This document shows positions 921 through 64,000 of a stretch of DNA of 64,000 nt, in pieces. The notes beneath the pieces are model-generated. The model was not told the origin of the DNA, did no database searches, and worked only from the letters and a program-made list of their open reading frames with translations. The stretch is from NCBI GenBank assembly GCA_964016885.1, contig OZ024747.1, positions 65,038,001 through 65,102,000 on the forward strand, read 5' to 3'. The DNA is from Eledone cirrhosa (taxonomy: Eukaryota). The translations under genes were made by a program, and so were the position numbers. Every line of letters begins with the position of its first letter. The stretch's first letter is position 1.

Positions 921-1267
921 GTAGATAAATCTACCAAGAGTTTACGGTAGTGTCCAATCCGTATGAAGAACTCAATGTAATCCGGATATCATGGAAAGAA
1001 GAGATGCAATGAAAAATCACTTTCGGTGAAAGATAAACGGAATACAGAGTCAAGATAAAATATTTAAAAAATAATGAATAAAACAATGAAACAGTTCCTT
1101 ATATTAAACAAAAAAAGTTCATTATTTAACGATCGTTTCTAGGATATATATGTGTTAGAATTGGCATGCATATTCAACAGATCTATGTACAAAATTATAC
1201 AAAATTATACAAACTATCAAAATTAAATATACATACCAACACATATATATGCCGTCTTCAGAAATAG

Positions 1268-1415
1268 ATTATTTCTGAAGACGGCATATATATGTGTTGG
1301 TATGTATATTTAATTTTGATAGTTTGTATAATTTTGTATAATTTTGTACATAGATCTGTTGAATATGCATGCCAATTCTAACACATATATATCCTAGAAA
1401 CGATCGTTAAATAAT
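1268..1415 (+). ncRNA. type-I hammerhead ribozyme motif with long stem II
   Basis: ATTATTT-CTGAAGA(1275)-stem II (ATATATATGTGTTGG...CTAACACATATATAT)-GAAAC-GATC-GTT-AAATAAT; stem I pairs perfectly. Confidence 0.7.
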
Positions 1416-1600
1416 TGTTTCTACTTTAGGCACAAGGCCAGCAATTACCCAGTGCATTACTGGTACTTTATTTTATCGACCCCGTAAGGATGAAAGGCAA
1501 AGTCAACCTCGGCAGGATTTGAACTCAGATCGTAAAGGGACGTAACTATGCTGGAAAGCATGGCGTCCGACCCTCTACCGATACTGCCAATCCACCGCCC
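1416..1600 (-). mobile_element. tRNA-derived SINE family A, full copy with 17-bp TSD
   Basis: Minus strand has box A TGGCAGTATCGG, box B GAGTTCAAATCC, body GCCTTTCATCCTTACGGGGTCGATAAAATAAAGTACCAG; TSD AACGATCGTTAAATAAT at 1399-1415 and 1602-1618. Confidence 0.9.
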
Positions 1601-1894
1601 TAACGATCGTTAAATAATGAACTTTTTTTGTTTAATATAAGGAACTGTTTCATTGTTTTATTCATTATTTTTTTAATATTTATATATATATATATATATA
1701 TATATATATATATATATATATATATATATATATATATATATATATATATGTATATATACAGACACACAGACATACATACAAACATGCATATATATGGGTG
1801 TGTGTATGTATGAATTGTGACAATGAATGAGAATATAAGAATGTACAGAAAGGCTGTATGTTGCCGTGAGAATTTGGTTGGTCCGAGTGAAATT

Positions 1895-2082
1895 TATTTG
1901 GGCAAGTTGCCGCATAATGTCACACTCTTTCACGTCCTGGGTTCCAATCTCACCGATGCGAGCTTCGCTTTTCATCCTTACGGGGTCGATAAAAGAAAGT
2001 ACCAGTAACTCACTGAGATTTGATTTCATCGGCATTCCCTTTTCCTTCCAACTGCTGACCTTGTGCTGAATGTAGAAATAAT
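1895..2082 (+). mobile_element. diverged SINE A-related copy
   Basis: TTTTCATCCTTACGGGGTCGATAAAAG..AGTACCAG body and CCTTGTGC..GTAGAAA tail. Confidence 0.7.
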
Positions 2083-2526
2083 TTCGATAAACTGATGAGG
2101 TTGACATGTGCCTGTATTTGCGTTTCCATTTTTCTCTGAATTTCAGAACAGATCCCATAATATTAAATATTTTTACCTGACAAATTCTTCCAAGAAATTA
2201 CGGGTAAGCCCCCTACACCCGGATATGTCTCTGAAAACAACAACTCTTTACTAATTTAGACGTAGCCTGGGCCAACACTCCCCACGAAACCTATCAAAGC
2301 TATATATATATATATATATATATATATACATACATAAATAAATAATATATATATATATATATATATATATATATATATATATATATATATATATATATAT
2401 ATATATATATATATATATATATATATATATATATATATATATACATAAATAAGGAAGGAAGTGTGGGAAGTAACCAGCTGGACCATAACGCACCAAAGTA
2501 CTCGATATTGGGTAGAAGAGTGGGTA

Positions 2527-2652
2527 ATAGGAAAAGAGTCAGGACCCCGACGGCTGGGTTCCGGCCGTTTCGACAGCTAGGTCTGAACTGTTCAGACCTA
2601 GCTGTCGAAATGGCCGGAGCTCAGCAGTCGGGGGTCCTGACTCTTTTCCTAT
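2527..2652. repeat. (TA)n-associated palindrome, family shared with 27552-27664
   Basis: ~62-bp arms centred on GTCTGAAC-T-GTTCAGAC. Confidence 0.85.
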
Positions 2653-2959
2653 ATATATAAATATATATACATATAATTTTAAATTTAAAAAAAAAAAAAA
2701 TGTATATATGTGTATACATACATCGTTAGAGAAATATATATGCAGATGTAAAAAAAAACATTTAATATTTTGGAAACATGTTGATGCTCCAGACAAATAT
2801 CCTTTGAAATTTTGCACTGAGAAACATATTCATCATATATAGTGTGTATATTATACTTTAGTATATATATATATATATATATATACTCATATATATATAT
2901 ATATATTTATTTATTTATTTATATAAACCCTTCATCACATTTTAATCCTATTCTATTCC

Positions 2960-3440
2960 GTTCCTCAAAGAAGATACGTAAACATACTTGTTAGTTGTAA
3001 CCCTCAGATCTTCTAGAACTTAAGGAAAATATAAAACATAAACAATACTCTTAATTCACACAGATTGCATGTTTCTATTCGATGATTCGACATTATAATG
3101 ATTGGAGTAAATATAAGGGGAAATCTATTGAGTTTTGGTTTGAAATGTCCAACATAAAGAAATGTATTTTCTAATTGGAGATATGTGAGCGAAGTATTCT
3201 CTTTCAATTTATTTGAAGATCATTGCAGCACAACTTCAACTATCAAGTTAGTTTTGTGCTATTGGAATTTCCTGCCAACTAATCTGTTGTTCTGACTTTT
3301 CTCTTGCTTTTGTTCTTTAATATTCTTTGATTGACAACAATAACAATAAACACGTTCAATATGCTCTTCCTATTCTTGCATGAGCCAAAAACTTCTGTTT
3401 ACACTAACTTTGTGTTTCCATATAGTTGAAAATAGAACTG
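2960..3440 (-). mobile_element. degenerate Penelope-like 3' end (GIY-YIG C-terminus + pLTR)
   Basis: Minus frame ends ..GHFKPKLN, typical of the PLE GIY-YIG C-terminus; followed by a decayed hammerhead-like AGAAGAT-CTGAGG...ATCTTCT. Confidence 0.35.
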
Positions 3441-3479
3441 GAAGGGAAATAATTGATGTTTTTAAACATGTCTAAAGAA

Positions 3480-60769: not shown

Positions 60770-61535
60770 CTGTGTATATATACGTATATACACACATACA
60801 TTTATATATATATATATATATATATATAGGGTGGGTAAAATTATATATGTGTATATATAGTATTTAAATATGTATACATGCAAACATATATGTGTGTGTG
60901 CATATATATATATATATATATATATATATATATATATATATATATATATATATATAAGTATATGTATATGTGTGTGTGTGTATTTATGTATATATATATA
61001 TATATATATATATATATATATATATATATCAAAGTTATATATATATGTTTATATATATATATACATATATATATATATATATATATATATTTATATAGAT
61101 AGATGTATATCTATATACAGATAAATATATATCTATAAATACATATACCTATATATATATATACATATATATATATACATATATATATATACATATATAC
61201 ATATACATATATACATATATATATATACATATATATATATATACATATATATATATACATATATATATATACATATATATATATATATACATATATATAT
61301 ATATACATATATATATATATATATATACATATATATATATATATATATATATATATATACATATATATATATATATACATATATATATATATATATATAT
61401 ACATATATATATATATATATATATACATATATATATATATATACATATATATATATATACATATATATATATACACACACACACACACACACACACACAC
61501 ACACACACACACACACACACACACACACACACACA
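60770..61535. repeat. long compound (TA)n/(CATA)n/(CA)n microsatellite
   Basis: Direct. Confidence 0.95.
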
Positions 61536-61536
61536 T

Positions 61537-61882
61537 GGAGGCACATGGCTTAGTGGTTACAGCATTGGCCTTGCAATCGAAAGGTCGTGAGTTCAATTCT
61601 CAGACCGGGTGATGTGTTGTTTCCTTGAGCAAGACACTTTATTTCACATTGCTCCAGTTTACTCAGCTGTAGAAATGAGATGATAGGGACTGGGGTCCAT
61701 ATCATTCCACTGCAATGTGGTCGTGTAGGTGCCACAGAAAAAAAGAACCAAGCACTCACTGTAAATGAGGTTGGTGTTAGGAAGGGCATCCAGCTGTAGA
61801 AATCAGCCAGAATCAGTTCCCGTCCCACCCTTGCAAGTAGGGACAAAGCGAACGTAAAATGAAATGATGATGAAAATGATGA
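61537..61882 (+). mobile_element. SINE B full copy
   Basis: Family sequence. Confidence 0.92.
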
Positions 61883-62224
61883 TATATATATATATTTATA
61901 TACATACAAATATATATGTTTATATAAATATATATATGTACATATATATATATATACAGATATATATACATATATATATATACATATACACACATACATA
62001 TTTAGACACATATATATATATACACACACAAATATATTCAGACACATATATATATACACACACATATATATATATATACATATCTCTATCTATACATCTA
62101 TAAAATAGAATTGCTATATAATTATTATTATATGCTCCAAATGATCCCTCTTTTGACAAATTTAAAAAACATATAAACATATATATATATATACACACAC
62201 GCATATATATATATATATATATAT

Positions 62225-62830
62225 GGTGGCTGCCAACTCGTTTTCGAGTACGGCCACTACTTTATATTCATGTAGGAGAACCCCTACCGATGCGCTGACG
62301 AGTGTGACTTTTTAGTCCAGCCAGCGACTTGAAAACTCTGGTACAAACACTACACTTGTGACAATTATTGACACAGTGCTGGGCCCATAGTACCATGTGA
62401 CGACAAGTGCAGAGAGATCTCCAGATATAAAGCAATGTCTGTGCCGTGAAGCTTTTATAGTGAGCAAAGGCACTGCACAAAGCCAGTCCCACTCTCTTAA
62501 CCAAGATTATATTTACCAAAAAGAAGAACAAGTCAACATCATTGGTTACTATCAGGGTTGCAGGTGTTATATCAGAGTTTTCCTTCTCCTAGAATTCTGC
62601 CTTGACAAAGGCTAAGGGGTCATCTCTCCCGGTGATTTTGGATGGCCATTGACTCTTAAGAGCTCCTTTGCCCTTTGACAGGTTTTGTTTTTAGTCCTGC
62701 AGGATGTCCAAAGTCACCCTCTTCACCAAGAAACCTTGGTGGGGTTGCCAGTTTAGTCGCCAACAACCCGACCATGGGACAGGTTGTACTGGAATACATG
62801 TTACCAGTAGCACCAACTGGTGACCTAACA
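62225..62830 (-). mobile_element. RTE (BovB-like) remnant with C-terminal C2H2 finger
   Basis: HKCSVCTRVFKSLAGLKSHTR near the 3' end; upstream part non-coding, possibly 5' UTR. Confidence 0.55.
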
Positions 62831-63204
62831 GACATATATATATATACATATATATATACACACATACATATGTATACATATATATATATATATATATATA
62901 TATATATATATATATATATATATATATATATATATATATATATATGTGTTTATATATATGTATGTATATATATATATATATATATATATATATATATATA
63001 TATATATATATGTGTGTATATATATATATCTATATATGAAAAATTAGAATTGGTGCTCTGAAATAGTGATGTATATATGAATGTATATACAGTGTATTTG
63101 GCAATACACTGTATGCTTCATTAAAAGCATTTTGAAGACCTTACGCTATTGTTTTAAAGTAGTGACTATGTCACTTATTTCTTTTTCCAACAAACAAAGG
63201 GAGA

Positions 63205-63252
63205 TAAGCTGACAGATCTCTGTTTCATACTGTTGGTATTCCTCAGAGCTTA
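63205..63252 (-). ncRNA. intact type-I hammerhead ribozyme motif (left-arm copy)
   Basis: Reverse complement of 63446-63493. Confidence 0.82.
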
Positions 63253-63445
63253 GCACTCCCCTTGTTTGTTGAAAATTATGAATGTTGGATTCTTATAGAA
63301 TTCCAGTAATAATCAGGAACTGATTATACAGAGTGGTTTTCAATTTTTGCTGGACCGGCAACCGCTCTGTATAATCAGTTCCTGATTATTACTGGAATTC
63401 TATAAGAATCCAACGTTCATAATTTTCAACAAACAAGGGGAGTGT

Positions 63446-63493
63446 TAAGCTCTGAGGAATACCAACAGTATGAAACAGAGATCTGTCAGCTTA
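63446..63493 (+). ncRNA. intact type-I hammerhead ribozyme motif, GUC cleavage site
   Basis: TAAGCT-CTGAGGA-ATAC(CAACA)GTAT-GAAACAG(AGAT)CTGTC-AGCTTA; stem I extends via CAACAAACAAGGGGAG/CTCCCTTTGTTTGTTG. Confidence 0.85.
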
Positions 63494-64000
63494 TCTCCCT
63501 TTGTTTGTTGGAAAAAGAAATAAGTGACATAGTCACTACTTTAAAACAATAGCGTAAGGTCTTCAAAATGCTTTTAATTAAGCATACAGTGTATTGCCAA
63601 ATACACTATATATACATTCATATATATATATATATTTATATATACATATGCATATATATAATAAATATACATATACACACGCACATATATTATATATATA
63701 TACATATATATATATGTATTCATTCATTTATTTATATATATACATATATATACATATATATATATGTATTCATTCATTTATTTATATATATACATAATAT
63801 ATATGCACATATTTTAAATGTTTTTACTTTTGCCTACTTTCCATTCCGTCAGAGGAAAGAAAAGTTGTAAATCATTCTCTTTTAAAAGACTTTCTTTAAG
63901 ACAACAAAAGTAAAAGAAACTTAACTAAAGCAAAATTTAAATCTCCTCCTTTGCTTCTTTTCGTTTCTTTTGTCCTTGTGTTTTTAATTGAACTTCCTTT

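Follow-up and report, generated by a model that had tools for sequence, protein, structure and literature searches.

Head-to-head fold-backs at (TA)n tracts of the Eledone cirrhosa genome: probable stubs of Penelope-like elements copied from both ends of a chromosome cut

A 64-kb stretch of the 3.0-Gb genome of Eledone cirrhosa (assembly GCA_964016885.1, contig OZ024747.1, positions 65,038,001 to 65,102,000; hereafter called the “window”) contains about a dozen short non-coding palindromes, or “fold-backs”, most of which abut (TA)n microsatellites. We analyzed them together with 80 random 10-kb pieces (800 kb) drawn from 23 large contigs, and with 369 genomic clusters of eight fold-back families. 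The results make it probable that the fold-backs are extremely 5′-truncated insertions of Penelope-like elements (PLEs), and of their non-coding derivatives, at (TA)n tracts, and that each is likely to be the product of two copying events, one per chromosome-cut end, joined head to head.

How are the two arms arranged? The initial annotation had proposed that the 5′ side of the ribozyme faces the palindrome center and the 3′ side faces the microsatellite, and this polarity is borne out genome-wide. Among the 369 clusters, 146 are head-to-head and only two are tail-to-tail, while 218 have a single orientation and three are complex. In the random pieces, the corresponding numbers are 26 head-to-head versus one tail-to-tail, and the polarity is also kept in all seven pairs detected by our hammerhead descriptor and in 10 of 10 opposite-strand pairs, among the matches listed (100 of 143 exact). 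In addition, the proposed association with (TA)n holds beyond the window: (TA)3 adjoins 84 of 120 3′ ends, as compared to 13 of 70 5′ ends (p 4e-12), in a test window that took in two bases of elements whose ends are themselves TA-like.

The 3′ ends follow a near-fixed rule. In seven of the eight families tested they fall at two sharp modal sites (blurred in family I), separated by a tail of about 33-135 nt. Of the classifiable head-to-head clusters, 108/113 combine one short end with one tailed end, where independent ends would give 50%; the end windows were defined on the same data, and the 33 of 146 clusters with an end off the modal sites were excluded. The loci of families B, C and E were picked with part of the tail in the query, while the random pieces, which are free of that bias, give 21/22 by themselves. 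The pattern-chosen family A loci give 13/16, and in family J the one-sided tail and the two 3′ ends were seen by eye. Moreover, 83 simple two-arm cases could be compared arm by arm: in 26 it is the tail-less arm that extends further 5′, by at least 8 nt, and in 15 the tailed arm, while 42 are even. In 26 of the 41 uneven fold-backs, each arm carries sequence absent from the other, and therefore neither could have been copied from its partner.

These two observations bear directly on the origin of the second arm, for which the initial annotation had invoked simple snap-back: a single cDNA, or antisense RNA, would fold on itself and be copied. Such self-priming has been put forward for head-to-head PLE palindromes in the accessible part of PMC3846280, and it accords with the variants shared between arms and with the junctions, which often overlap through short self-complementary stretches. 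However, it cannot yield the mutually unique arms, it gives no reason for the copy to end at the second fixed site, and some junctions have only 0-1 nt between the arms, probably too short for a hairpin loop. We therefore regard snap-back as unlikely, and favor two primings, one per target end, because of the end rule and the mutually unique arms. Two independent insertions, side by side in the same (TA)n hotspot, are very improbable in our judgment. The families are indeed abundant and often adjoin each other in TA tracts, but arms of the same family meet with almost no intervening TA, or none, their end types differ, and their variants are shared. The head-to-head orientation of 146/148 clusters already largely refutes this explanation.

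The palindromes themselves are real. Self-BLAST after microsatellite masking recovered all 12 inverted repeats named in the initial annotation (weakest E 9e-14), and 11 of them fall in nine multi-copy families, as its mention of several families had implied. Most of the elements extend beyond the boundaries first given, since one arm has an extra tail. By the same kind of count throughout, the window holds 11 fold-backs, 800 kb of random genome 100 and 400 kb of shuffled sequence none; the density of the window is thus near genome-typical, and one random 10-kb piece holds 15. The fold-backs in the window are as follows.

921..1681: family C fold-back, assigned to the 3′ end of a Hydra-like PLE; left arm 921-1273 with a tail of about 135 nt, right arm 1270-1681 with the short end; hammerhead with a stem II of about 120 nt, cores at 1261 (-) and 1275 (+), read by eye.
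1416..1601, + strand: short interspersed element (SINE) in the right arm of the family C fold-back, with a 17-bp target-site duplication (1399 and 1602).
2457..2652: family B fold-back; left arm tailed, both arms beginning within stem II, which leaves just the 3′ half of a U3-A8-type hammerhead.
18415..19412: family I fold-back; SINEs inserted in both arms, right arm tailed.
27552..27697: second, older family B fold-back; right arm tailed.
32409..32530: fragment of family I; inner palindrome at 32442-32497.
41257..41443: family D fold-back; the left arm is short, while the right arm is tailed and has its core at 41319, with the cleavage triplet mutated (by eye).
48558..48649: palindrome beside (GAAA)n, its single match being itself; kept apart from this system.
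54259..54495: family E fold-back; left arm tailed, family core CAGAAGA.
55474..55817: family F fold-back; the tailed left arm ends at the GAAA box, while the tail-less right arm extends about 110 nt further 5′ and includes the core at 55715; each arm has sequence absent from the other.
56312..56514: family J fold-back; one-sided tail, (TA)n flanks, no hammerhead found.
56870..57263: family G fold-back; left arm with a 33-nt tail, U3-A8 core at 57082, long stem III.
63044..63637: family A fold-back of a 317-nt tandem non-coding unit; left arm tailed, canonical type-I hammerhead in both arms (63246, -; 63452, +).

The arms are 84-100% identical in 11 pairs (differing by 0-16%), and one arm of 921..1681 contains a SINE with its 17-bp duplication. 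The palindrome hence predates the SINE, which we take to resemble octopus SINEs, and for both reasons the fold-backs are old germline features. The explanation to which we give the least credence is an assembly or library artefact, created by chimeric inverted reads. The center of the 63044..63637 copy is bridged by no contig or read among the matches listed, but the diverged arms, the unequal family-specific ends and the SINE with its duplication in one arm speak against an artefact, as does the presence of opposite-strand family A joints in raw DNA reads from another study (105 and 58 reads, with one start place each).

The repeat first described at 18415-19362 exists, but it consists mostly of SINE sequence inserted in both arms of the family I fold-back. 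These SINEs (18440-19090 and 19227-19340) occupy the same (AAT)n site of the two arms in opposite orientations, and this SINE lies just upstream of the site in 4/20 family I loci, which suggests that the site may be a preferred SINE target. The 48558-48649 palindrome, which had been counted as part of the system, is not assigned to it: the genome search returned the palindrome alone, and it contains no hammerhead. Its mir-9 match lies below threshold (55.1 versus 58.6 bits) and is probably a mere hairpin score.

Which elements gave rise to the fold-backs? The genome searches returned first-look candidates, which are not copy numbers, for all nine families: 2158 for A (63073), 2450 for B (2527 and 27552), 32 for C (1057), 1219 for D (41267), 1753 for E (54352), 1130 for F (55565), 2556 for G (56914), 1068 for I (19090 and 32442) and 508 for J (56370). 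Judged from its sequence context, family C is the 3′ end of a coding Hydra-like PLE. Locus L263 has a 630-aa frame for a reverse transcriptase (RT) and endonuclease, to which a family C copy, inverted and tailed, is joined, and at six places the ends of related frames sit 0.7-1.8 kb upstream of family C. The assignment of the frame draws on its motifs and a weak tblastn match; its C-terminal endonuclease lacks CCHH and has CxxC and CxH near the end, in agreement with the published Hydra description. Pfam returned no matches for this frame or for the two PLE frames of the window. The non-coding unit of family A measures 317 nt and is repeated head to tail, like a retrozyme, and its head-to-tail joint was found again in contigs of sequencing runs X1 and X4. 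The PLE or retrozyme origin put forward in the initial annotation is supported. As side observations, a 38-bp satellite of more than 30 copies (L028) has grown out of the short-end region of family A, and loci L314 and L338 carry a second retrozyme-like repeat, a further hammerhead family whose units of about 465 nt are arranged in tandem (three copies in L338).

The initial annotation had also connected the fold-backs with a coding PLE in the window. This element is present, with 30,183 first-look candidates genome-wide and a decayed hammerhead-like motif near 23535, but self-comparison revealed no DNA similarity to the fold-backs, and family C has another, Hydra-like PLE as its coding partner.

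23400..25546, - strand: PLE, 5′-truncated and frameshifted; RT with YIDD, followed by GIY-YIG with two internal cysteines.

The fold-backs might alternatively be self-copying hairpin elements—similar to miniature inverted-repeat transposable elements (MITEs), or a fixed fold-back master—spreading as whole units. The junctions of family B are tightly clustered, and some recur identically. In contrast, the junctions differ between copies in every family, 218/369 clusters have a single orientation, and family C ends a coding PLE; we consider such hairpin elements improbable.

Type-I hammerhead motifs occur in eight families (A-G and I), four of which have variant cores: U3-A8 in B, G and I, and CAGAAGA in E. 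The descriptor used to find them allows C3-G8 or U3-A8 cores and long stems, while mutated, truncated or variant motifs, including the hammerheads of B, C, D and F, were recognized by eye in aligned copies. By descriptor, the motif is intact in 22/30 copies of A, 9/20 of E, 3/20 of I and 1/25 of G. The hammerheads first claimed for the fold-backs are thus confirmed at the family level, although only three motifs in the window pass the descriptor (63452+, 63246- and 36666-). Their frequency exceeds that of shuffled sequence, as 20 shuffles of the window contain none, and the 800 kb of random genome hold 56 motifs, as compared to two in total over 10 shuffles. The density of 70 per Mb (bootstrap 42-101; at least one match in 26/80 random pieces) would, if extrapolated, roughly correspond to 2 x 10^5 intact-looking hammerheads in the genome; published counts, obtained with other descriptors, are about 4,000 and 9,000, about 5,000, and at most 14,255 tandem copies. 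None of the 133 Rfam matches at E<=1 is to a hammerhead family.

At 56914-57263, a hammerhead exists as first noticed, but its core is the U3-A8 at 57082 and not the CUGANGA-like string further in. The descriptor detected no family J hammerhead in the 15 loci, where two matches belong to neighboring repeats, and a search for core boxes in four loci gave nothing convincing. Family J has PLE-type ends and no coding frame within 1.5 kb upstream; it is a candidate for a Naiad end or a rewired ribozyme. Among the six stand-alone motifs listed in the initial annotation, the one at 36624 passes the descriptor and a passing relative exists for each of those at 28077 and 59524, while those at 23535 (0/2 relatives), 35715 (0/2) and 55346 (0/5) do not.

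28060..28125, + strand: stand-alone U3-A8-type hammerhead, decayed; 1/5 relatives passes the descriptor.
36620..36680, - strand: stand-alone hammerhead passing the descriptor, core CCGAUGA at 36666.
59515..59575, - strand: stand-alone hammerhead with GAAA changed to GAGA; its single relative passes the descriptor (1/1).

Several observations weigh against an origin of the fold-backs from two primings of PLE RNAs. First, the end rule leaves out the 33 off-modal clusters and shares its data with its own end windows, and the queries for B, C and E were tail-biased. Second, the 42 even cases and the 15 with a longer tailed arm are compatible with snap-back and do not exclude it. The arms share non-majority variants above the level of unrelated copies in seven of the eight families (0.14-0.82 versus 0.05-0.11), which fits a single source RNA but is likewise compatible with snap-back or with gene conversion at a later time. 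Third, (TA)n lies on both flanks, and a target-site duplication is unreadable within it. Finally, the fetched loci gave no coding partner of A, B, D, E, G, I or J and one suggestive locus for family F, and no copy of B, C, D or F has the intact motif of its own family by descriptor.

Where does the copying stop? The predicted ribozyme cut site was tried as the truncation point, but the 5′ ends of families A, B, D, E and F do not pile up there. In the random pieces, 22 of the 49 family B 5′ ends lie within an 8-nt span, and some of these copies form a subfamily with a different upstream sequence. Among B and E copies starting at the A of TYAGTY, a motif that we take to be initiator-like, the preceding non-templated base is G in 17/26 (p 8e-4), while in family G it is G in 0/7, lending no support. 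The extra G in B and E is suggestive only, but it would be consistent with run-off at a capped RNA start. The apparent pile-ups in C, D and F were set aside, since at these places either the references stop or related subfamilies begin to differ. We saw no constant upstream exon that would join at the AG close to the pile-ups of B and E. Branch-point-like and 3′-splice-site-like motifs do precede the pile-up in L054 and L039 (upstream of the family B start) and in L159 and L162 (family E), where they overlap the initiator-like motif; in Drosophila Penelope, an intron ending at the ribozyme has been reported. In three near-perfect palindromes (L154, L160 and L310), both arms reach the same base, and the spacer, a single G or C-A-G, looks as if each arm had finished with one extra G.

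A two-priming origin would proceed in the following manner. The PAc Poseidon enzyme nicks and extends both target strands in vitro, with two RNA start sites that bracket the tail, and a PLE enzyme is predicted to be a dimer (PMC11167929). One target end would be primed at the short RNA site and the other at the tail end, with two RNAs, or two units of one tandem RNA, as the templates. Both cDNAs would then stop early or run off the 5′ end of the RNA, and the two short cDNAs would be joined head to head, often via microhomology. More speculatively, and with somewhat less than an even chance of being right, the genome may contain several hundred thousand fold-backs and approximately 200,000 intact-looking hammerheads, and the fold-backs may be the fossil record of a PLE dimer priming both cut ends at once, with one subunit per RNA start site and the cDNAs running off the capped RNA end. 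If so, dimer double-priming would unite the tail, the inversion and the polarity in a single mechanism. The end rule and the mutually unique arms give a clear prediction, which is testable in the existing in vitro PLE system.

What would the fold-backs mean for transcripts? As both 5′ ends face the center, a transcript entering from either side makes the antisense arm first. In the predicted fold of 63040-63625, all 36 positions from the core to the cut site are base-paired to the other arm, and it would take 38 kcal/mol to free the core. A read-through transcript would probably form a long double-stranded hairpin with the ribozyme buried rather than active, and the fold-backs, if transcribed at all, would yield double-stranded RNA rather than working ribozymes. 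The idea that they seed the genome with ribozymes is therefore upheld in the high density of intact-looking motifs, but weakened by this predicted pairing and by the truncation or mutation of most copies in the window. If the dimer model is true, the PLE stubs would rank among the major sources of the double-stranded RNA on which editing and silencing act in this animal. For annotation, these repeats resemble MITEs or microRNA hairpins (the Rfam microRNA matches are below cut-off), and the Rfam hammerhead models miss them. The window also contains a 27-bp minisatellite (14066-16258; 81 copies, 94% match) and an RTE-like long interspersed element (28522-31595, + strand) with endonuclease, RT and PHD finger within its frame.

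How do the fold-backs compare with known systems? In the accessible parts of PMC8557442 and PMC3846280, the inverted copy, the one-sided tail and the TA bias are already described for endonuclease-containing (EN+) PLE insertions, including Pen2a_Av in the latter paper. Both systems have partial tandems, an inverted 5′-truncated copy, head-to-head polarity, a tail at one end and AT-rich or (TA)n targets. Unlike the insertions in these texts, the units here are mostly the pseudo-LTR alone, the tails measure about 33-135 rather than 30-40 nt, and the one-tail pattern has been counted as a near-rule. The Hydra clade, as far as PMC8557442 was available, shares with the family C partner the C-terminal endonuclease without a cysteine pair inside the GIY-YIG core, the CxxC and CxH around the last E and N, the (TA)n insertion and the hammerhead at the 3′ end. 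The family C partner differs in its 3′ untranslated part of 0.7-1.8 kb, including microsatellites, and in its stem II of about 120 nt; the two are likened by description.

Non-LTR retrozymes, in the available text of PMC7229834 and bioRxiv 10.64898/2026.07.22.740005, resemble family A in their non-coding, AT-rich, approximately 317-nt head-to-tail unit with a canonical type-I hammerhead. In contrast, family A has mostly one or two units, an inverted copy and PLE-type tail ends, with no long arrays. A PLE origin of retrozymes is argued in the same portion of the bioRxiv paper. The PLE hammerhead variants in the accessible part of PMC4209133 have in common with ours the U3-A8 core, the extra base at the foot of stem II, the palindromic stem III, and motif pairs on opposite strands at a spacing of 100-700 bp, while the CAGAAGA core of family E is not among the variants in that part. 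Our extrapolated hammerhead number lies far above the 4,000-9,000 called remarkable there, the descriptors being different. Our literature search, for which subscription papers and supplements were largely beyond reach, found nothing on such hammerheads in octopus, no work joining Penelope inversion to twin priming and no later mechanism paper.

The closest mechanistic likeness is PAc Poseidon (PMC11167929), with its two RT start sites bracketing the tail, the nicking and extension of both strands and an AT-rich target; the main text of that paper makes no tie to inverted insertions, a link that we infer here. The available text of PMC8557442 names the formation of PLE tandem and inverted ends as an open question. 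The layout of the fold-backs is known from these systems, and what the present analysis adds is its scale—about 70 intact-looking hammerheads per Mb—and the rule of one short and one tailed end.

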